DNA of 64,000 bases from Escherichia coli (GCF_011045215.1 NZ_CP049201.1); one strand, 5' to 3'; counted from the first letter of the stretch, positions 17,483 to 60,504 are shown. Numbers and translations: made by a program. Notes: generated by a model not told the origin, from the sequence alone.

Positions 17483-17502
17483 TGGCGTTGTGATTCACGT
17501 TC

Positions 17503-18090
17503 ACAGAGAGCAAAAATCAACCAGTGCTGCCAGTGGCAGCATAGAGCAAAAATTAGCCAGTGCTGCTCGGGGCAGCATAGAGCAAAAATTAGCCAGTGCT
17601 GCCCGGGGCAGCATAGAGCAAAAATCAGCCAGTGCTGCCCGGGGCAGCATAGAGCAAAAATCAGCCAGTGCTGCCCGGAGCAGCATAGAGCAAAAATTAG
17701 CCAGTGCTGCCCGGGGCAGCATAGAGCAAAAATTAAGCAGTGCTGCCCGGGGCAGCATAGAGCAAAAATTAGCCAGTGCTGCCCGGGGCAGCATAGAGCA
17801 AAAATCAGCCAGTGCTGCCCGGGGCAGCATAGAGCAAAAATTAAGCAGTGCTGCCCGGGGCAGCATAGAGCAAAAATTAGCCAGTGCTGCCCGGGGCAGC
17901 ATAGAGCAAAAATCAGCCAGTGCTGCCCGGGGCAGCATAGAGCAAAAATCAGCCAGTACTGCCCGGAGCAGCATAGAGGAAAAATTAGTCAGTGCTGCCC
18001 GGGGCAGCATAGAGCAAAAATTAGGCAGTGCAGCCCGGGACAGCATAGAGTGAAAATTAGCCAGTGCTGCCAGTGTCACCAAAGAACAAA
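17503..18090. repeat. tandem array of about 15-16 copies of a 36-bp unit (iteron-like; candidate vegetative origin)
   Basis: Unit GCAGCATAGAGCAAAAATTAGCCAGTGCTGCCCGGG repeated head-to-tail with few substitutions (TTAGCC/TCAGCC/TTAAGC). Each unit holds a 7-bp palindrome GCTGCCC-G-GGGCAGC. The periodicity creates artefactual repetitive ORFs on both strands. Confidence 0.85.
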
Positions 18091-18354
18091 AATTATGCTG
18101 CGTCAGCAGCATGGAAGGCGGCGGCACTGAATATCCTGAAACATCTGACGGTAAACCGCCGAAGCCCGGCGTCAGCCGGAAACGTCCTGACAGGATGCAG
18201 TGCTCTCCCCGGCCCTGCCAGACCCTGTTTGTTTCAGGAAAAAGCCTGTGTCACATAAAAGAACCGGAGTACAGAGGTAAAACAGAATACTTGCCGCCGT
18301 TTTTTCCGTCAGTATACTTTTTCGTGCTGAAATTCTGGCTAAGGAAAGATTTTT

Positions 18355-21984: not shown

Positions 21985-22220
21985 TCTTAATTTCTCCCTG
22001 TTCAGGATCGGGTAGTGTGGTTAAGCTTTGATGTATACCCCCGTTATCAGCGGGAGGCTGGCTCAACGAAAACACAACGGCGTTCAGTCAGCTACTGATA
22101 CCACAACCGGCCATCGCACATCCTGTCGGGTTGTAAGGCGCATGCCCTCCGTGAAAAACGCGCCGGGATTTATCCCCGGAGACAAGTGAGATAACCACCG
22201 GGCTGGTACCCCCCTGTAAC

Positions 22221-22248
22221 GGCGCTGTATTTGCAGCGCCGTTTTTTA
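22221..22248 (+). terminator. rho-independent terminator downstream of topB
   Basis: GGCGCTGtatttgCAGCGCC followed by TTTTTTA. Confidence 0.65.
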
Positions 22249-22312
22249 TTCCGGGTTGACTTTCCATGGATGTGTTTTAAAAATAACCGGGCTTATTTGC
22301 TGCATCTGCAGC

Positions 22313-22496
22313 CAGCCAATGTTTCAGCAGTCTGAGAGAAACGCCTTCGGGTGACTGCCAGCCAACGTTTCACCGGCCTGAGAGAAACACCTTCGGGTGG
22401 CCGGAATATCCTCGTAGCCTGAAAGAGGATGCCTGTGGGCGGTACATCCGTTTAACCTCTGGAAACGGATATCACTGTTCAGTGATTGAGGTCTTT
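22313..22496 (+). ncRNA. structured repeat element R1 (two pseudoknot-like units plus terminal hairpin domain); candidate sRNA or single-strand structural element
   Basis: Units CCAGCCAAyGTTTCa-stem-TGAGAGAAACrCCTTCGGGTG-stem, then ..GGTACATCCGTTTAACCTCTGGAAACGGATATCACTGTTCAGTGATTGAGGTC followed by TTTTT. Homologous to R2 and R3 with compensatory stem changes. Confidence 0.45.
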
Positions 22497-22614
22497 TTAC
22501 TTCTCAGACAGCCGGAATTCAGCTGATCCGGCATCCCCGACGGGAACATTCACTTCCGTCAGGGATGGTGATGTTCTCCGTCATCACATTTTTTAACTCC
22601 ATGGAGAAATCATC

Positions 22615-23070
22615 ATGTCTGTAAATACTGCTAAAACTGAATACTTTAATCTGACCCTGAAAGGTCTGGGGTATCTCAGTAATGTACGTCAGGTGAATCA
22701 CCAGAACGGCTCGTTTCTCAGCTGTGTGGTGAATGCGCTGAGCGGACCCACGGACAGCCCGTCCTACGTCCGTTTTGATGTCACGGTTGCCGGTAAAGAG
22801 GCGACTGCCCTGATTGCCCGCTGCCAGAAGGCGGTGGATGAAGATCGCAAGGTGCTGCTTGGCTTCACGCTGAGCAACCTGTCCACTGACATCTTCACTC
22901 TGAACAAGGGAGAGCATGCCGGTGAACAACGCGTCAGCCTGAAGGCCCGCCTGATCAAGGTGGACTGGATCAAGATAGGCCAGGAGATGGTTTACAAGGC
23001 TGAAAAATCAGACTCCCAGCCGCCGCAAAACGGCACCATGCAACAGCAATACGCAGAAAACTCTTTCTGA
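22615..23070 (+). CDS. conserved ICE protein upstream of ssb (151 aa; DUF3577-like)
   Basis: GGAG RBS; position between topB and ssb is typical for this ICE family. Family name is from memory. Confidence 0.55.
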   Translation: MSVNTAKTEYFNLTLKGLGYLSNVRQVNHQNGSFLSCVVNALSGPTDSPSYVRFDVTVAGKEATALIARCQKAVDEDRKVLLGFTLSNLSTDIFTLNKGEHAGEQRVSLKARLIKVDWIKIGQEMVYKAEKSDSQPPQNGTMQQQYAENSF

Positions 23071-50823: not shown

Positions 50824-51231
50824 TTAATTTCCATCGCGCTCCCATTGTTCTCTCCATATAGGACGCTCCCATTCTTCTCTCCATATAGGACGCTTCCATT
50901 GTTCTCCTTCGTACTCAAAATTCAAGTCATGCCTCTTTTCAAGACTATCACATTGTGTATTAAATCCGGCACCAACACATCGAAGAATGTATGCAACAGC
51001 CCATGTAAACGCCAGACACCCGAGAACTGCCGTGATACTGAAGAGTGCACAAACCACAATTCCGGTTAATCCAATAGCCAGCGGAAGCCGTCCAGTCCAG
51101 GCTGGCAGATGCCTTTTTCTGGCCGCATGAATCCAGAAGTTGTCCCACCGACGAAGCGTTCTTACGAGTCGTTTCCACTGAATGGCAAACCGTTGTCCTC
51201 TGAGATAAGCGGCTTTGTTAGTCGTTTTCAT
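50824..51231 (-). CDS. membrane protein with C-terminal tandem WKRPIWRE-type repeats
   Basis: Two TM helices; the C-terminus contains EGEQWKRPIWREEWERPIWREQWERDGN, mirrored at DNA level by repeats at 50830-50900. Confidence 0.4.
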   Translation of the reverse strand: MKTTNKAAYLRGQRFAIQWKRLVRTLRRWDNFWIHAARKRHLPAWTGRLPLAIGLTGIVVCALFSITAVLGCLAFTWAVAYILRCVGAGFNTQCDSLEKRHDLNFEYEGEQWKRPIWREEWERPIWREQWERDGN

Positions 51232-52772: not shown

Positions 52773-52914
52773 ATAATTAATTTGTATCTACAGAATATTA
52801 ATGCTCAGGCTGGTTAACCCCGGCCTTTTTATTTTATATACAGACGTTCCTGTGAGACTATTGACATATAAAAGCCCGTCTTGCTAATCTTTTCCCGCTT
52901 TAATGTCGCTGTAT

Positions 52915-53101
52915 GCGACCATCCAAATCCCCAGTAGTCTGAGAGGGGAGCCTTCGGGCGGCTACCAGCCAATGCTTTAACGATCTGAGAGAAGCGCCTT
53001 CGGGTGATCGTAATGTTCTCGTAGCCTGGAAGAGAACGCCTTACGTGGCGGTACATCCGTTTAACCTCTGGGAACGGATATCACGGAACCGTGATTGAGG
53101 T
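52915..53101 (+). ncRNA. structured repeat element R2 (homolog of R1 and R3)
   Basis: Same unit architecture as R1 with compensatory stem substitutions (TCCCC/GGGGA in place of GTTTC/GAAAC; ACGATC/GATCGT in place of GCAGTC/GACTGC) and the conserved 3' domain GGTACATCCGTTTAACCTCTGGGAACGGATATCACGGAACCGTGATTGAGGTC. Confidence 0.45.
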
Positions 53102-53763
53102 CGTGCTGGCCTGAGGCCAGTTGTTCTATGCAGGCATCCTGCAGATGCCATGATTCTTTACTTACAGGCTTATCACGCCTGCATATCAATACGTTAAGTC
53201 TTTCAGAGACATGTCTGAACGAACTGACGTCTTTAATCTGTTCGGGCATTCGCCCCGGGCTTCTTACGACTGTACGCACTGCATAAGGCCATCTGAAATC
53301 TGGCCGCTTGCGTGCGTATGTGGAGTTTGAAGCTGCGCGGCGTCACTTTTGTCGGCGTGTAACGATGACAAAGTGACGCATGCGCGTCTGCTTTACGAAC
53401 CCGCACAAACCGTCGCGTCACGGGATGTTTTTTAACATTTGAAGAAGTGACCAGACGTGAGAGTGTTTTTTCAACCTTCTCTGCAAACGTACAGACGATA
53501 CCGTGAATAACGTTCATCGACCGTTCTTCTTGCAGAATTTTATTGTTTTTTAAGGAGTTTTATGTAGTGAGATGCCGAACCGGCGATACCACTTATTAGG
53601 GGTGGTATCGGGGGCGACCTGGAAACAGGTACAGCGAATGCTGCAGTCGGTGTGCAACACCGGTTTGTTACCCCTCAATACCTAAACAGTCTGCGCTACC
53701 CTGGCGCTCAGGCACTCATTACCCGAAGGATCGCAACGCTTAACCGTGTCGCCAGGGAGAATG

Positions 53764-53812
53764 CAGATGAATTTTGCTGTTGTGTTCACGGCACAACAGC
53801 AAAATTCATCTG
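53764..53812. promoter_or_regulatory. perfect 21-7-21 palindrome upstream of the recombinase gene (candidate operator or recombination site)
   Basis: CAGATGAATTTTGCTGTTGTG-ttcacgg-CACAACAGCAAAATTCATCTG, followed directly by the 14-bp palindrome GCTGTACGTACAGC at 53812-53825, 25 bp upstream of the GAGGAGG RBS. Confidence 0.5.
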
Positions 53813-53850
53813 CTGTACGTACAGCTGTTTAAGACAAAGAGGAGGTATCT

Positions 53851-54753
53851 GTGTCCAGACGTGAAAAATTACTGAAACAGGATTTGGTTGCTCATATCCG
53901 GAAAGACCGGGGGAGTTTCAAGAAGCTGAGTGACTATTCCCGGATCATGCACCGGTTTGCGGAAAGACTGGCTAAACTGAATATACAGATCAGTTCTGCT
54001 GCGCAGGTAAAAGTGCGGCATATTGAATTATATATGAACAGCAGGAGTGATGTTTCAAAGCGAACCAGAGAAAATGAAATGTCTGCAATACGGGTTATGT
54101 TACGTCAGGCCGGTAAACATAAAATGGCAGATCCTGAACATCCCCGTCTCAGCAATAAGGCGTTAGGTATTTCAGGAGGAAGCCGTAAAGGGACAAAGAA
54201 ATTAATTACGGATGAGCGTTTCCGGGAAATTCTTCAGCGCGTGGAAGCAAAAGATAAAGGGGTGGCAGCTGTTGTTAAACTGTCACGTTATCTCGGTCTG
54301 AGAAATGAAGAAGCTGTCCAGTCGGCCAAATCGTTACGGACGTGGAAAAAAGCGTTACAACGGGGAGATGAAAAAATAAGGGTGATTTTTGGTACGAAAG
54401 GGGGACGGGAAAGAATGACGACGGTTGTTGACCGGGATAAAGTTCTTGATGCTGTTAATTACGCACTCAAATATGCCAGTGAGCATAATGAACGTCTGAT
54501 AGACAGAGATAATCTTAAGTCGGCAATGGATTATTATCTTAATACGTTACGACGTTATGGAGAACTGAAAGGCGGAGATGAAACCGCACACAGTTTTCGG
54601 TACAGTTACGCCGCAAGTGCCATGAAATATCATATTATGAATGGTTACAGTTATAAGGAGGCACTTGCACTGACATCAATTGATCTTGGTCATGGTGATG
54701 GCAGAGGTCGATATATTGAACAGGTTTATTGTCAGTTATTAGGCTATGAGTAA
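53851..54753 (+). CDS. tyrosine site-specific recombinase (phage-integrase/Xer-like catalytic domain)
   Basis: GTG start with GAGGAGG RBS. Catalytic-domain boxes: LSRYLGLRNEEAVQ (box I Arg), HSFRYSYAASAM (H-x-x-R), GHGDGRGRYIEQVY (catalytic Tyr). Confidence 0.65.
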   Translation: MSRREKLLKQDLVAHIRKDRGSFKKLSDYSRIMHRFAERLAKLNIQISSAAQVKVRHIELYMNSRSDVSKRTRENEMSAIRVMLRQAGKHKMADPEHPRLSNKALGISGGSRKGTKKLITDERFREILQRVEAKDKGVAAVVKLSRYLGLRNEEAVQSAKSLRTWKKALQRGDEKIRVIFGTKGGRERMTTVVDRDKVLDAVNYALKYASEHNERLIDRDNLKSAMDYYLNTLRRYGELKGGDETAHSFRYSYAASAMKYHIMNGYSYKEALALTSIDLGHGDGRGRYIEQVYCQLLGYE

Positions 54754-55109: not shown

Positions 55110-55157
55110 CTTGACATCCATCTTTTGTGCCTTAAAAATATACAGGCTAACTTTGTT

Positions 55158-55414
55158 ACCTTCGGGTGACCATCCAATGTTTCGGTAGTCTGAGAGAAAC
55201 GCCTTCGGGTGACTACAGTTATCTTCGGATAACCATCCAAATCCCCGGTAGTCTGAGAGGGGAGCCTTCGGGCGACTACCAGCCAATGCTTTGACGATCT
55301 GAGAAAAGCGCCTTCGGGTGATCGTAATGTCTCCGTAGCCTGAAAGGGGACGCCTTAGAGGGTGGTACATCCGTTTAACCTCTGGAAACGGATATCACGG
55401 AACAGTGATCGAGG
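55158..55414 (+). ncRNA. structured repeat element R3 (three units plus terminal domain)
   Basis: Largest copy: a partial unit, then GTAGTC/GACTAC, GGTAGTC/GACTACC and ACGATC/GATCGT units, and the conserved 3' domain ending ..GATCGAGGTC followed by TTTTAT. Confidence 0.45.
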
Positions 55415-55488
55415 TCTTTTATACTTAACCCGTGCGGGAGATACATTCCCGTATGGTGATTGTATCTCCGGTTTTACTGTGGAGGTAC

Positions 55489-55839
55489 ATGATGCCGTTA
55501 TCTTCTTTTGTTCAGGAGTTGCTGGCTCCCTGGTATTCTTTTCGTTCTGTCTGTTGGCGCATTTTTGTGGCTTTTCCGCAACTGCGGGCAACTGTATTGC
55601 GTACCCGCTGGTATCTGTCGTTGACAGGACAACGAGAATATTGCCCCAATGTCTGGTTTGATGGCAGTGTGTACCATTGTGCTGTGTTGGTGCGGGAGTG
55701 TCATGATGCCCGTAAATCAGTACCAAAGGTGCAGTACTATATCCCTGGATACTTTTCTTCATATCGTTCAGCATACCGGACAGCCAGGAGAACGGCGATT
55801 GCGCTGGCGACGATAAAAGTGTCGTGCAGGGCTGTCTGA
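55489..55839 (+). CDS. hypothetical basic protein (116 aa)
   Basis: GGAGG RBS; first gene downstream of R3. Confidence 0.4.
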   Translation: MMPLSSFVQELLAPWYSFRSVCWRIFVAFPQLRATVLRTRWYLSLTGQREYCPNVWFDGSVYHCAVLVRECHDARKSVPKVQYYIPGYFSSYRSAYRTARRTAIALATIKVSCRAV

Positions 55840-55948
55840 TTCATTATTACCGAACCGGAGCATCAGCGTTGTTGTGATGCCTCCATCCCCTGACGGGTGT
55901 TTTTGTCCGTCGGGGCGAAGACTCCCGTTTCTTTTTACAGGAGTCTTT

Positions 55949-56323
55949 ATGTCAACGTTTATTTTGTGCCCTGAACCGGGCATCTCTTCTTTTTTCCGGC
56001 GAATGACGGCTCAGTTGCGGGTGTTTTTTTCACGCAATAACCTGTCATATTACAGTCGCTGGTACACCAATCCGGCCGGCAATCTGAGTGTGCGGGTCTG
56101 TATGTTTCGTCGTGGCGGTGTCTGGACACCCTGTCTGTATTACCGGCAGGGAATGCACCGCAACGCGTACACAGGCTGGTATCAGCCGTTACCGCGTGAG
56201 GTCATTTGTCTGAACCGGTTTACCGGGCGGATATCCCGTCGCAGGACCTGGCATGCTGCCTGCCGTATGGCGGAACAACTGACCACCCTGCGTTACCGGT
56301 TTGGTCTGCAGGCTGATGGATGA
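55949..56323 (+). CDS. hypothetical protein (124 aa), Arg/Tyr-rich
   Basis: AGGAG RBS. Confidence 0.4.
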   Translation: MSTFILCPEPGISSFFRRMTAQLRVFFSRNNLSYYSRWYTNPAGNLSVRVCMFRRGGVWTPCLYYRQGMHRNAYTGWYQPLPREVICLNRFTGRISRRRTWHAACRMAEQLTTLRYRFGLQADG

Positions 56324-56427
56324 AAGCGTCGTACAGCCCTGCTGATTTATCATTTATTACCCTGTCGGGAACACGCTTCCCGCAGGGGAGATGTGTTCCC
56401 GTGATTTTTTGTCTCTGAGGTGAACAC

Positions 56428-56907
56428 ATGAATAGTCTGTTAATACTCCTTTACGTTGTTGTATGGCGTGTCTGCACCATTCTTCGGGTAATCACACCAG
56501 TGTCGGCTGTCCGTGCGTGGTGTGAGTATCAACTGGAAGGTATGACGATACTTCGTGATGCGTACAGCTCGCTGGCAAAGGCGGCTGGAATGCAGAATGA
56601 AGCATTTGAATATCTTAAAGGTATTGCACGTCATCTGGGCTACGAAAGCGGTGGTGACCAGCTGAAATCAGGACTTTTCCGGCCGTTTCTGTGGCATATA
56701 CGTGCGAAAGGCCACAGGCTGGGGGCTGTCATGGAGATGGAGGTATGGAAGACATGGAAGAACGGCTGTAACGATGTCTGCAATCCATGGAAGGATATCT
56801 ACAATCCATGGGAGCGTGGATGGAACGATGGCTGGACTGAATGTCTGAATCAACGTGTAGCCGGCATCCTGAAGCAGGCCTGTGTTGACTTTTCCGACGC
56901 AGACTGA
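56428..56907 (+). CDS. hypothetical protein (159 aa) with N-terminal hydrophobic segment and Trp-rich C-terminus
   Basis: GAGGTG RBS; repeated NPW motifs (CNPWKDIYNPWERGWNDGW). Confidence 0.4.
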   Translation: MNSLLILLYVVVWRVCTILRVITPVSAVRAWCEYQLEGMTILRDAYSSLAKAAGMQNEAFEYLKGIARHLGYESGGDQLKSGLFRPFLWHIRAKGHRLGAVMEMEVWKTWKNGCNDVCNPWKDIYNPWERGWNDGWTECLNQRVAGILKQACVDFSDAD

Positions 56908-57012
56908 AGGGTTTTTCTTTTACTTACTGCACCGTGTGTCTGCGCCGGTGCTTTCCCTGGCGGGAGTTTTGTTCCGTCAGGGACAGGACTTCCTGAACAG
57001 ACGGAGGTCATT

Positions 57013-57390
57013 ATGTATTCACCCTTACTTGTTCATTATTCAGCACTGCAGACGCAGTCTGCTCTGCTGGCGCATATCAGCCAGCTGGAAGGTGAGCTGA
57101 TGCGGTTACGCGCCTGGCAACGGCTGGGGATTACTCCGGAGCCGGATGATGAGACGGAGCCTTCACTGGTATACGTGCAACTGTGGGATACCGGTGAGGC
57201 GCTGGGCTGGCTGCTGTATGACCTGGAGCAGGAGAACATTCCTGCTCCGGGAGTTCAGGCCCGTCAGGCGCTTGACAGTCTGATGGCGCTGGGGCGTGAA
57301 ATTAATCATGAAATCTGGACTGACAGTATCAGTACCGGAAAGCTGACGGCCGGGGCGGATGCCTGTTTTGCCCGCCACGACATGATGTAG
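57013..57390 (+). CDS. hypothetical acidic protein (125 aa)
   Basis: GGAGG RBS. Confidence 0.4.
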   Translation: MYSPLLVHYSALQTQSALLAHISQLEGELMRLRAWQRLGITPEPDDETEPSLVYVQLWDTGEALGWLLYDLEQENIPAPGVQARQALDSLMALGREINHEIWTDSISTGKLTAGADACFARHDMM

Positions 57391-57477
57391 TTAATAACCT
57401 GACCCTGACGGGGCGTGCTCTCCGTCAGGAAGGCATTCCCCGTAGTTTATTTTTAATCTGACCATGAGGAATGTTCC

Positions 57478-58107
57478 ATGTCTGAATTATCTTCACGTCC
57501 GGCCCGTGAGCCGGTGGTATATACCCTTGAGCAGGTTGCCACAATACCGGAAAAGCAGTGGCATGCTTTTGTTCTGGCCGTAACTGAAACCTTCTGGCAG
57601 TTGCCGGAGGCGTTACGGCCGCAGAATGCGTATTTCGGCTCCCTGACCCGGGCATCTGAGTTGTTTCCGGTAACGGATACACTGGCGTTTTACAGCCGGT
57701 CTGCAGACGGGTTGTGGTCGGTGAATGTCACCATTGAACGGGAACATCGTCAGAACATTCTGGTGCTTAAGGAGCTGAATTTCGGACGCCAGCCGGGGGA
57801 TTTCTTTGCCCGTACGGTGTTTGTGCTGTTGCACAATCTGTGTCCGGATTGTTTCCACATTCATTCCACTGCCGGTGGTGCCAGCTGGTCACTGCCGCTG
57901 AAATGGATAAAACGGTTCCTGGGGCATGAGAATTTTTCTGCTCCGGAGTCTGTATTAACCACCCCGGTAAGGGGAGATGCGTTTGACTGTTTACTGCTGC
58001 AGTTTCTGTCCGGTCAGGGGCGACAGTTATCCCCGGATGACTGGTCAGCGCTGGAAGAGGCTGAACATCAGCTTTACTGGCTGCGGGCACTTGCCGGTGG
58101 ACACTGA
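57478..58107 (+). CDS. hypothetical protein (209 aa)
   Basis: AGGAA-type RBS; CPDC pair; no recognised domain. Confidence 0.4.
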   Translation: MSELSSRPAREPVVYTLEQVATIPEKQWHAFVLAVTETFWQLPEALRPQNAYFGSLTRASELFPVTDTLAFYSRSADGLWSVNVTIEREHRQNILVLKELNFGRQPGDFFARTVFVLLHNLCPDCFHIHSTAGGASWSLPLKWIKRFLGHENFSAPESVLTTPVRGDAFDCLLLQFLSGQGRQLSPDDWSALEEAEHQLYWLRALAGGH

Positions 58108-58229
58108 CAGAACACCGTTGTTTCTTTTCATTTACCCGGAATAACGCCATCGCGTATTCCGTCATTCATATAACCCGGCAGGGAGATATCCCTGTGGGGA
58201 GAGTCCCTGCGTTATTCAGGAGAATTGTT

Positions 58230-58613
58230 ATGGGACTCGATATTTACTTTATGGCTCGTGATAACCATCAGAATGGTGCCGTTGTGGAAACACAGGAACA
58301 TCAGGAAGTGGGGGCTTTCCGTAAGGTGATGCCGCTTCTGACATGGTTCCGTAACCATACTGGTGCTTCGGATGAGCAGCATACTTTCCCTGTAACACGC
58401 CGGTCACTGGCTGCATTATTGCGTGACCTCAGTATGCTGATGCCGGGAAACTGCCACAGCCTGTTTCCTTATGTCAGAAACTCGCGTTTACGGGGTGAAG
58501 ACTATGCTGATGATTACTGGTATGACGTGAATGACGTAAAAGCGTGGGTCAGCGATACGCTGAAGACGTTTGATTTTGAGCGTCGTTCACTGGTGATGCT
58601 GGCGTTGTGGTAA
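58230..58613 (+). CDS. hypothetical protein (127 aa)
   Basis: GGAGA RBS before the internal ATG. Confidence 0.4.
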   Translation: MGLDIYFMARDNHQNGAVVETQEHQEVGAFRKVMPLLTWFRNHTGASDEQHTFPVTRRSLAALLRDLSMLMPGNCHSLFPYVRNSRLRGEDYADDYWYDVNDVKAWVSDTLKTFDFERRSLVMLALW

Positions 58614-58742
58614 GTCTGAGACCGCATAATATGAACCGCTGGCGGAGGGGGTAACCTGACCGCCATTCATCCCGTGAGGGCATTGTTCCTCACGGGACAG
58701 TGCCCTCTTTTTACATCTGATACAAAAAGAGGAGCGTAAACC

Positions 58743-59690
58743 ATGTCTGAATGGTGCCAGAATCGTTTTGAAATTACCGGTAAGTCAGTCTGTCTGGATG
58801 TGCTGACGCAGTGGATTGAAGGATGTGAGATACCGCGTTACCGCCATGCCATACAGCAGAGTATACAGCTGTTTCTGGCCGGTTGTGCAGGGCTGGTGAA
58901 ACCCACCCGGACGACGCAGTATCCGCCATATCCGGCGCTGGTTCGTCACGGTACTGGGATGTCATCTCCGGCTAACCAGGCATTTGAACAGTGGCTGGGG
59001 CTGCTGGTAAAAGATGCCGTACTGGATGAAGAGACGATAAAGACCATTGACCGCCTTTATCACCAGACATGTATTGGCGCAGTCCGCTGGGGGAATCTGC
59101 CGGATAATGCCCGGGAGATAATCACCGCGTTAATGCGTTGTCAGTATTCTGACTGGTTTGGCCTGGTCGGACTGAGCGAACACATTGATGCCGGAGCCTG
59201 CTGGAGCCGGCTGTCGGATTACCCGGAGCAGGCGCAGCCCTGTGACATGCTGATGGTCATACCCTCCCGTCTGGCCACAGAGCTGAATGGTTCAGGTGGA
59301 CTGCTGCAGGGTATTTCCACCACGACCAGCCTTTACAGCCGGATATACGGTGTGGAGTGGCCATCAGGTCACAATGTCCGCTGGGTGCGTGATGAGATGA
59401 GCAGTCTGGTGCTTCTGACGGATACGCCCTGGTATCCGCCTTCAGGTGAGCTGGTTGGTGAAATCTCGAAGGTGTTCGACTGTGAGATACGGCACTGGTA
59501 CAGCGAACCTGTCCGGGGCATACAGGGTTACAACTGTTATGACGGTGGTGAACATACGGACAGTGACCCGCAGGCTGAATGGCCGGGGAGGGAAACACTT
59601 CCTCAGCCCCGGCTGTATCTGGTGGAGGAGCGCGCTGAAGAACAGACAGAAGCCGCACCTTTACCGGTTCCGCTGGCTTCAGGCCAGTAA
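58743..59690 (+). CDS. hypothetical protein (315 aa), Cys-rich N-terminal half, acidic C-terminus
   Basis: GAGGAG RBS. Confidence 0.45.
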   Translation: MSEWCQNRFEITGKSVCLDVLTQWIEGCEIPRYRHAIQQSIQLFLAGCAGLVKPTRTTQYPPYPALVRHGTGMSSPANQAFEQWLGLLVKDAVLDEETIKTIDRLYHQTCIGAVRWGNLPDNAREIITALMRCQYSDWFGLVGLSEHIDAGACWSRLSDYPEQAQPCDMLMVIPSRLATELNGSGGLLQGISTTTSLYSRIYGVEWPSGHNVRWVRDEMSSLVLLTDTPWYPPSGELVGEISKVFDCEIRHWYSEPVRGIQGYNCYDGGEHTDSDPQAEWPGRETLPQPRLYLVEERAEEQTEAAPLPVPLASGQ

Positions 59691-59811
59691 TTAACCTCAG
59701 GGTGTCACATTCGTGGCACCCGTTTTTTCCTGTCATCTTTCATTTCAGCCCGAAGGGGAACACCTGTTCCTCCCCGGGGCCATGTGTTCCCTGTTTTTTA
59801 CGGAGAAACAC

Positions 59812-60504
59812 ATGGCCACCTTTATCGACCATCAGAAGGCCTTCATTTCGCTGTTTAATCAGACCGCCCGTTATCACAAACGCCATAAGGTGTTTGAAGA
59901 CTTTGTCAGCTGCAGTGTGATTGCCCTGGAGAACCGGCTTCAGTTCAGTGAGGCACGGGAGCAGAAGTACCTGCGAATCGTCAGTGGTTATGAAAAGCAG
60001 GATGTTATCAACATGGCGCATTTGCTTGCTCATGTCATTGAGGGACTGGAGCAGGGATTCTGTGACTTTCTGGGCAGCGTGTTCATGCAACTGGAGCTGG
60101 GGGATAAATACCGGGGCCAGTTTTTCACGCCCTGGAGTGTGGCCAGAATGATGGCACAGATGCAGCTGGGGAATGTGACGACGCTGTTTGAGAACAAGCC
60201 CTTTATCACGCTCCGTGAACCGGCCTGTGGTGCCGGCAGTATGATACTGGCTATGGCTGACACCCTGAACCATTCGGGATATCCGGCATATCGCAGGATG
60301 TGGGTGTCGGCAACGGATATTGACCCGCTGGCAGCCGGCATGGCGTATATACAACTGTCGCTGTGTGGTGTGGCCGGTGAAGTGGTGATTGGCAACTCAT
60401 TGTGTAATGAGCGACGCCGGGTACTGCTGACGCCCGGGCATTACCTCGGGAACTGGTCATATCGTCTGCGTCATTCTCAGGAACAGGTCACAGCTGATGC
60501 CTGA
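59812..60504 (+). CDS. short methyltransferase-like protein: HsdM-type SAM-binding motif without the NPPF/Y catalytic motif
   Basis: REPACGAGSMILA (motif I-like) and ..ATDIDPLAAGMAYIQLSLCGVAGEVVIGNSL, but the ORF ends about 30 aa later and is followed by a clean terminator. Confidence 0.45.
   Translation: MATFIDHQKAFISLFNQTARYHKRHKVFEDFVSCSVIALENRLQFSEAREQKYLRIVSGYEKQDVINMAHLLAHVIEGLEQGFCDFLGSVFMQLELGDKYRGQFFTPWSVARMMAQMQLGNVTTLFENKPFITLREPACGAGSMILAMADTLNHSGYPAYRRMWVSATDIDPLAAGMAYIQLSLCGVAGEVVIGNSLCNERRRVLLTPGHYLGNWSYRLRHSQEQVTADA

Follow-up and report, generated by a model that had tools for sequence, protein, structure and literature searches.

Three STAXI RNA copies in an integrative conjugative element of Escherichia coli: promoter register, a covarying 3' tail and a possible role as cis-acting leaders

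Background

ToxI-type antitoxins of type III toxin-antitoxin systems are arrays of near-identical direct repeats. ToxI, CptI and TenpI loci consist of a promoter, tandem pseudoknot units, a terminator-like hairpin and a downstream gene, and the same layout is found at the pseudoknot arrays treated here, which lie in a stretch of 64,000 nucleotides of Escherichia coli (GCF_011045215.1 NZ_CP049201.1; this whole stretch is referred to as the window, and positions are given in its coordinates). In an earlier note on the interval 52915-53850, the three arrays of the window (there called R elements) had been compared with type III antitoxins, and that reading had been rejected. The R elements are three copies of the catalogued STAXI RNA, and the second copy is followed by an EFASI RNA. 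Both are already known Rfam families; newly added here are the promoter register of STAXI, a covarying tail and a set of terminator/anti-Shine-Dalgarno (anti-SD) modules downstream of it.

The STAXI motif was described from Enterobacterales as tandem pseudoknots with UUCG loops (Weinberg et al. 2010, PMC2864571) and was named after its neighbours (Ssbp, Topoisomerase, Antirestriction, XerDC Integrase). EFASI RNA, found several hundred bases downstream of STAXI, takes its name from occurring "frequently around STAXI and integrases", and radC RNA is another motif of 2010, which Rfam types as cis-regulatory. In the literature searched, no function is known for STAXI, EFASI or radC RNA. Two further kinds of element are relevant for comparison, namely antiterminator RNAs and single-stranded promoters. 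HK022 put is a cis-acting processive antiterminator RNA. Cis-acting antiterminator RNAs have also been described in conjugative elements (canT of Tn916, PMC11658703; conAn2 of pLS20, PMC8191782), and Frpo is a promoter for which the transferred (template) strand folds into a hairpin imitating a duplex -35/-10 (PMC11541004).

Structure of the STAXI copies

The whole window was scanned with Rfam at curated thresholds (gathering scores of 40.5 bits for STAXI, RF01728, and 51.2 bits for EFASI, RF02957). Four matches were obtained, all on the plus strand, three to STAXI RNA and one to EFASI RNA. The three R elements were assigned to STAXI because their matches far exceed the gathering score, and they carry the repeated pseudoknot units with UUCG tetraloops. 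The tandem units reported in the earlier note thus coincide with Rfam matches, and repeat finders agree; its start at 52915 has to be moved upstream, as the second copy begins at 52904 behind a promoter-like site at 52861-52888. The copies and their parts are as follows.

22298-22448, plus strand: STAXI copy 1, Rfam match (RF01728, 135.2 bits); 22298-22492 with the tail
22441-22492, plus strand: tail pseudoknot of copy 1, from covariation
52904-53057, plus strand: STAXI copy 2 (RF01728, 109.7 bits, E 1e-22)
52905-52919, plus strand: 5' hairpin of copy 2, from unit parsing
52923-52965, 52966-53011 and 53012-53054, plus strand: pseudoknot units of copy 2, from unit parsing
53050-53101, plus strand: tail of copy 2, mostly beyond the Rfam match, with two hairpins and a pseudoknot
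55154-55415, plus strand: STAXI copy 3 (RF01728, 85.8 bits), with the Rfam match at 55154-55279, the array up to 55363 and the tail at 55364-55415

For comparison, 30 loci from other genomes were gathered by a two-unit pattern, and 34 STAXI and 14 EFASI matches were confirmed in them by Rfam. A total of 37 STAXI copies from other Enterobacterales were compared, some of the loci being near-duplicates; 29 unique copies were used for promoter analysis, and 68 units were parsed for helices. The arrays are built from a 5' hairpin, followed by 2-5 H-type pseudoknot units and a different 3' pseudoknot tail. In the window, copies 1, 2 and 3 have 3, 3 and 4 units, respectively. Copy 3 resembles copy 2 (91% identity over 185 nt) with an additional 5' duplication of 63 nt; this tandem duplication of the 5' hairpin and first unit (55155-55279) results in two 5' hairpins and four pseudoknot units. 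Apart from this extra duplicated unit in copy 3, the window copies are no different in kind from the rest of the family. Units of about 46 nt were also recovered by repeat finders, as was a further conserved segment of 61 nt that lies 3' of the Rfam match and is common to all three copies. Units of one copy share 57-77% identity, their differences being compensatory, and the pseudoknot helices occur with at least 10 different compensated sequences; the unpaired motifs CCAAUG and CUGAGAG are conserved. Some units in other genomes bear an inserted hairpin.

The covarying 3' tail pseudoknot is a feature beyond the Rfam STAXI model. The tail is made up of two hairpins, the first with an ACCUC or ACCUU loop whose pairing partner is a GAGGU or AAGGU at the 3' terminus; copy 2 has the combination ACCUC/GAGGU. 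Over 25 distinct tails, 93% of the cells were paired and 16 of the 20 pairs were changed on both sides. None of 500 shuffles matched the observed values, and the signal collapsed once the partners were slid against each other.

Promoters and strand selection

When the 95 nt upstream of each array were scanned, 24 of the 29 unique copies had their best sigma-70-type match end at a distance of 11-16 nt from STAXI position 1. The -35 hexamer was often a perfect TTGACA, and the -10 hexamers and spacers varied. From this fixed register, a start site 5-9 nt before the first STAXI hairpin is predicted, which for copy 2 would place transcription initiation near 52895. The sites found in the window, together with the terminators that precede two of them, are listed here.

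52807-52826, plus strand: terminator-like hairpin with T-run from the terminator scan, closing the upstream DUF2726 gene and immediately preceding the copy 2 promoter
52861-52888, plus strand: sigma-70-like promoter of copy 2 (TTGACA, 16 nt, GCTAAT), the -10 hexamer ending 15 nt before STAXI position 1
22218-22243: topB terminator preceding the copy 1 promoter
22256-22284, plus strand: promoter-like site of copy 1 (TTGACT, 17 nt, AAAAAT)
55111-55139, plus strand: promoter-like site of copy 3 (TTGACA, 17 nt, AAAAAT)

If each copy is transcribed from its own sigma-70-type promoter, as these sites suggest, the array would form the extreme 5' end of its transcript. In the 68 parsed units (three helices each), 133 G.U pairs were counted versus 3 A.C pairs, and C(UUCG)G loops were present in the parsed helices. 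Since G.U positions become mismatches on the complement, the structure is selected on the sense strand.

Terminator/anti-SD modules downstream of STAXI

The next assigned open reading frame (ORF) was on the same strand as STAXI in every copy examined. Across the 37 copies, the next gene coded for STY4534, for one of various small proteins or, behind EFASI, for an integrase, and the copies split into two classes by their downstream layout. In class 1, the next ORF starts 76-127 nt past the tail, and the leader contains a GC-rich hairpin A (consensus CCCYGNCGGGRR ... YYCCCGNCRGGG) followed by an anti-SD hairpin. Two folds were found for this module. In the minimum-energy fold of the full-length RNA, the anti-SD strand pairs with the Shine-Dalgarno sequence (SD) and the start codon, with a U-rich loop in between. 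When the transcript is truncated at the T-run, the anti-SD strand instead pairs with the 5' half of hairpin A and is followed by the T-run, i.e., has the shape of an intrinsic terminator, and this long terminator hairpin was the minimum-energy fold in 17 of 24 modules. The pairing is maintained despite quite different module sequences, and an independent scan placed terminator-like sites at 6 of the 9 modules of the window. These modules, and the first genes behind copies 1 and 3, are located as follows.

22535-22617, plus strand: module before the STY4534 gene, hairpin A with an anti-SD strand that pairs with either A or SD/ATG
22615-23070, plus strand: STY4534-family/DUF3577 gene by family match (151 aa, 'ICE replication protein', ICE denoting integrative conjugative element)
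55430-55491, plus strand: module before the ORF of 116 aa, with alternative folds
55489-55839, plus strand: basic protein of 116 aa, isoelectric point (pI) 9.9, narrow distribution, no family match
about 55887-55951, 56360-56430, 56955-57015 and 57403-57480, plus strand: first four of seven further modules in the copy 3 operon
about 58174-58232, 58670-58745 and 59750-59813, plus strand: last three of these seven modules

In the copy 3 operon, a module precedes each gene as far as the DUF1281 gene, and two of the three operons headed by STAXI have a conserved switch before each cistron. Placement of the modules is restricted to the region downstream of STAXI: loci from other genomes (239 kb) gave 37 hairpin-A matches, every one of them downstream of STAXI, against none in the 114 kb on the upstream side (P about 4e-11 under a uniform model, a value inflated by near-duplicate loci). 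Within the window, hairpin A occurs only in operons led by STAXI, except for one unrelated short hairpin at 31968. The intercistronic modules gave no Rfam family at E <= 1.

Several of the first-gene products after STAXI (55489-55839 and 55949-56323 in the window, and those of loci L007, L015 and L028) are small and basic and, judged by eye, end in a similar R-x-A-x-x-L-A-T-L-K/R-x-R-F motif; a BLASTP comparison of the first two small proteins after copy 3 gave no significant indication of paralogy.

STY4534 homologues were additionally traced in Pseudomonas, Ralstonia, Haemophilus and Enterobacter, where they lie on plasmids and ICE-like replicons, and the hairpin-A/anti-SD module before the homologue was kept in all of them. 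In Pseudomonas and Ralstonia, which are beyond the range of STAXI, and on an Enterobacter plasmid, the slot of STAXI is filled by radC RNA (RF01754, 97-124 bits), at these places in the respective loci.

L038, 1247-1396: radC RNA (Rfam RF01754)
L040, 1268-1412: radC RNA (Rfam RF01754)
L041, 1239-1388: radC RNA (Rfam RF01754)

Like STAXI, radC RNA is a structured leader of about 150 nt with a UUCG hairpin, standing before the STY4534 gene with the same switch module, but it has a different covariance model, and the window contains no match to it. Read by eye, the radC RNA of the Pseudomonas plasmid is preceded by a terminator-like hairpin and a TTGACA motif. Because one Klebsiella leader (L042, 1154-1404) gave weak matches to both the radC and the STAXI model, the two leaders may be homologous. 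That one slot, in front of a shared switch and gene, is used by two different structured leaders speaks for an action of the leader in cis on that switch.

The interval between copy 2 and the integrase-like gene

Copy 2 belongs to class 2, in which the features behind STAXI are, in order, terminator-like hairpins, a spacer of 250-450 nt, EFASI, usually a long variable hairpin, and an integrase-like gene (292-307 aa, PF12835). The order STAXI-EFASI-integrase was found in 12 of 12 loci, with the integrase about 340-730 nt after the tail. The features behind the copy 2 tail are the following.

53105-53121 and 53133-53149, plus strand: two terminator-like hairpins directly after the tail, from the terminator scan
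53340-53379, plus strand: hairpin in the STAXI-EFASI spacer (GCGUCACUUU ... AAAGUGACGC), conserved across loci
53564-53721, plus strand: EFASI RNA (RF02957, 55.0 bits, just above the gathering score of 51.2)
53763-53813, plus strand: perfect hairpin of 22 bp between EFASI and the integrase start, from the inverted-repeat scan
53851-54753, plus strand: integrase-like gene (300 aa) with Phage_int_SAM_2 (PF12834) and Integrase_1 (PF12835)

The integrase-like gene starts about 745 nt beyond the STAXI tail, and its own ribosome-binding site (RBS) closes the interval 52915-53850. The EFASI match lies downstream of STAXI and upstream of the integrase gene, placed as in the family description quoted in PMC12370729. 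No conserved ORF was found between STAXI and EFASI in the 12 loci, and the spacer is probably non-coding, because ORFs vary in strand and position. The outer stem of the spacer hairpin 53340-53379 is near-invariant in most of the 12 loci, which come from several genera, with a G-C to U-A double change in 3 of them; the upper stem is variable and includes G.U pairs. This hairpin could be an RNA element or a protein-binding site. The hairpin at 53763-53813 could serve as an RNase III site or as an antitermination-resistant stop; at the matching place, most other loci have a long hairpin of different sequence. The earlier note on this interval had caught the pseudoknot units and the hairpin after them; the STAXI and EFASI identities and the hairpins at 53340-53379 and 53763-53813 had gone unrecognised.

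Genomic context and distribution

The element in the window is an ICE of the SPI-7/PAPI-1 type according to the annotation of close E. coli relatives, in which it is inserted at tRNA-Phe beside cadC. Its gene order begins with parA, dnaB-PI, parB, STY4528, topB, STAXI copy 1, STY4534 (DUF3577) and ssb, continues with pilL and type IV secretion genes, the DUF2726 gene, STAXI copy 2, EFASI and the integrase-like gene, and ends with STAXI copy 3, a run of small genes, an ArdC-like gene, the DUF1281 gene, a methylase, cargo, a helicase, TraI and an integrase. The neighbours that gave STAXI its name are present, with topB upstream and ssb downstream of copy 1, an integrase after copy 2, and the ArdC-like gene in the copy 3 operon.

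STAXI-like sequence was detected in 670 of 5426 complete E. coli genomes (about 1 in 8), O157:H7 included. The O157:H7 copy is a remnant that lies beside IS66 elements within the urease island. A search of 50,697 phage records gave no STAXI match, and a phage origin was dropped on these grounds. Plasmid contexts were mostly fragments adjoining insertion sequence (IS) elements, from which transfer polarity is not readable. In related islands (L017, 2810-2980; L036 and L037, from E. coli), STAXI/EFASI are preceded at a distance of a few kb by hok/sok-type modules (Rfam sok match, Hok/Gef genes), traT and a type-B L31 gene.

Three further repeats were noted in the window. At 17507-18095, a unit of 36 nt is repeated about 16 times with 92% identity and encodes the 12-residue repeat SIEQKLASAARG, within an ORF (17490-18053) directly after the STY4528-like replication gene. 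Four to five imperfect repeats of 23 nt (TGGCAT...CGATCA) at 29500-29623 are intergenic in the transfer-gene region and may be a protein-binding array. A unit of 27 nt, present 2.6 times at 50837-50906, falls within the minus-strand ORF 50824-51231 and gives C-terminal peptide repeats of the WERPIWRE type.

Discussion

The resemblance to a type III antitoxin locus that the earlier note had pointed out is real, including the terminator-like hairpins at 53105-53121 and 53133-53149 behind the copy 2 units. That STAXI is a ToxI-like array neutralising an endoribonuclease toxin encoded downstream is nevertheless extremely improbable, and its rejection in the earlier note is borne out by three lines of evidence. 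The ToxI repeats are near-identical, whereas STAXI units are diverged (57-77% identity within one copy). The genes downstream of the window copies are mutually unrelated, as had been noted (DUF3577/STY4534, an integrase-like gene about 745 nt away and the protein of 116 aa with pI 9.9), and across loci several unrelated downstream classes occur, so the repeats are not kept together with one toxin; in the 12 EFASI loci, the next gene is an integrase at a distance of about 340-730 nt. Finally, no gene for a ToxN/AbiQ-, CptN- or TenpN-type endoribonuclease adjoins the arrays, and the downstream products are without a toxin or defence match in Pfam, NCBIfam and PADLOC, as the note had expected. 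Fold recognition, which it had proposed as a check, was run for DUF3577 (predicted local distance difference test, pLDDT, of 56), and no ToxN- or Kid-like protein was among the matches listed. All Foldseek matches of this low-confidence model were weak (E >= 0.03), the top ones being mostly OB-fold proteins that bind single-stranded DNA (ssDNA; SSB, RPA, PriB), which speaks against a toxin as well. The model of the 116-aa protein (pLDDT 39, built from 5 sequences, with only 4 homologue clusters known for the protein) was uninformative on its fold, and sequence and profile searches of the PDB gave no match.

Three other explanations have to be weighed against a cis-acting leader. An action as ssDNA in conjugative transfer, either as a complementary-strand priming site or as an Frpo-like promoter, was raised by the discoverers of STAXI and agrees with the neighbouring ssb, topoisomerase III, antirestriction and integrase genes, a set similar to the plasmid leading regions driven by Frpo. 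It is considered very unlikely here. Pairing is selected on the sense strand, whereas an Frpo-type promoter needs the template strand; no inverted repeats were found over the STAXI promoter regions of the window, whereas Frpo mimics a duplex -35/-10, and an Frpo-like ssDNA promoter was rejected for that reason; an ordinary duplex promoter stands in fixed register; C(UUCG)G loops are stabilising in RNA and not in DNA, as the discoverers themselves pointed out; and in published work STAXI transcripts have been detected by strand-specific RNA-seq (in Pectobacterium, downstream of topB) and by reverse transcription quantitative PCR (RT-qPCR). Taken together, these points settle the question in favour of RNA within the limits of sequence analysis. 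As RNA, STAXI might be a free-standing, trans-acting small RNA (sRNA), either a CsrB-like protein sponge or scaffold or a regulator pairing with targets, the downstream genes being independent of it. The Rfam type (sRNA gene), the promoter of its own, the terminator-like hairpins that adjoin the tail in copy 2 and in other EFASI-type loci, the 2-5 units with conserved unpaired CCAAUG and CUGAGAG, and the published RT-qPCR detection of STAXI RNA in vesicle preparations are all in keeping with this, yet one class of copies is without a terminator after the tail and is followed on its own strand, at a distance of 76-127 nt, by the SD of the next gene, the switch modules are strictly downstream of STAXI, its place can be taken by radC RNA, which is typed as cis-regulatory, and no conserved partner protein adjoins STAXI. 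On balance, an sRNA is unlikely, although it is the strongest of the alternatives. Somewhat less probable still is a passive 5' stabiliser or insulator against RNase E attack dependent on the 5' end and against Rho loading, with no signal-dependent role. Such a function would fit the position at the extreme 5' end with a hairpin first, a leader that is very stably structured and untranslated for 300-900 nt, and a slot open to two different structured leaders (STAXI and radC RNA), but the strong conservation of unpaired nucleotides across genera and the covarying tail pseudoknot go beyond the needs of a simple stabiliser, and the reiterated terminator/anti-SD switches would be left unexplained.

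We lean, by a modest degree, towards STAXI being a cis-acting 5' leader that governs passage through the switches. STAXI heads three operons, comprising STY4534 and ssb, EFASI and the integrase-like gene, and the small genes followed by the ArdC-like and DUF1281 genes, and in this model the leader would decide in cis whether transcription and translation pass the switches. A terminator before each gene combined with a structured RNA right after the promoter is a signature of processive antitermination: STAXI is promoter-proximal and on the strand of the operon, with internal terminators downstream. The most likely mechanism within the model would be processive antitermination by the RNA itself or via a loaded factor, so that the establishment genes would be expressed only by polymerases started at the STAXI promoter; this specific version is put forward tentatively. 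BglG acts on the RAT target, and the switches could alternatively be driven in a similar manner by a protein that stabilises hairpin A. Some ideas arrived at by eye were dropped as unsupported, namely base complementarity between the STAXI core and the stretch that follows the tail, a likeness of GGCGGUA to RfaH ops, and hammerhead-like CUGA motifs.

A number of points weigh against the leader model. A read-through effect of STAXI is hypothetical, and neither sequence nor structure similarity was found to put, EAR, canT, conAn2 or any other known antiterminator RNA. The variable number of units (2-5) is more in keeping with a multi-site binding platform or sponge than with an element bound to polymerase. 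In a loose scan, 15 terminator-like sites were counted in the STAXI operon versus 8.1 expected, and 26 in the type IV secretion region versus 15.2 expected; as the enrichment is about equal, terminator density does not discriminate. The favoured fold of the full-length RNA masks the RBS, hence read-through alone would not yield translation. The terminators and the long untranslated stretch behind copy 2 fit a free-standing sRNA too. Lastly, the counts across loci overstate independence because of the near-duplicates among them.

The closest parallels to the proposed function are put, canT and conAn2, which like STAXI are promoter-proximal structured RNAs in mobile element operons with several internal terminators, and the proposed logic would be the same, in that element genes are insulated from outside transcription. 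Their hosts are phage and Gram-positive elements, and none of them is a pseudoknot array of variable unit number, unlike STAXI. It is conceivable, though rather doubtful at present, that STAXI and radC RNA represent the first described case, among Gram-negative conjugative elements, of antitermination or licensing based on RNA.

For annotation, the result guards against recording STAXI as a toxin-antitoxin or defence system, to which ToxI, CptI and TenpI belong; unlike these, STAXI combines diverged units with variable downstream genes and has no cognate endoribonuclease gene. The new comparative features also make the function of STAXI open to a few direct experiments. The operons led by STAXI contain genes that are expected to act on entry into a new host (ssDNA-binding, ArdC-like antirestriction-type and recombinase genes). 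If the antitermination version holds, genes such as ssb and those for antirestriction and recombination would depend for their expression on the promoter of the element itself, and transcription from outside would not reach them. Should the leader control read-through of the switches, the spread of genomic islands in Enterobacterales would have a control point in it, and it would be a Gram-negative counterpart of canT/conAn.

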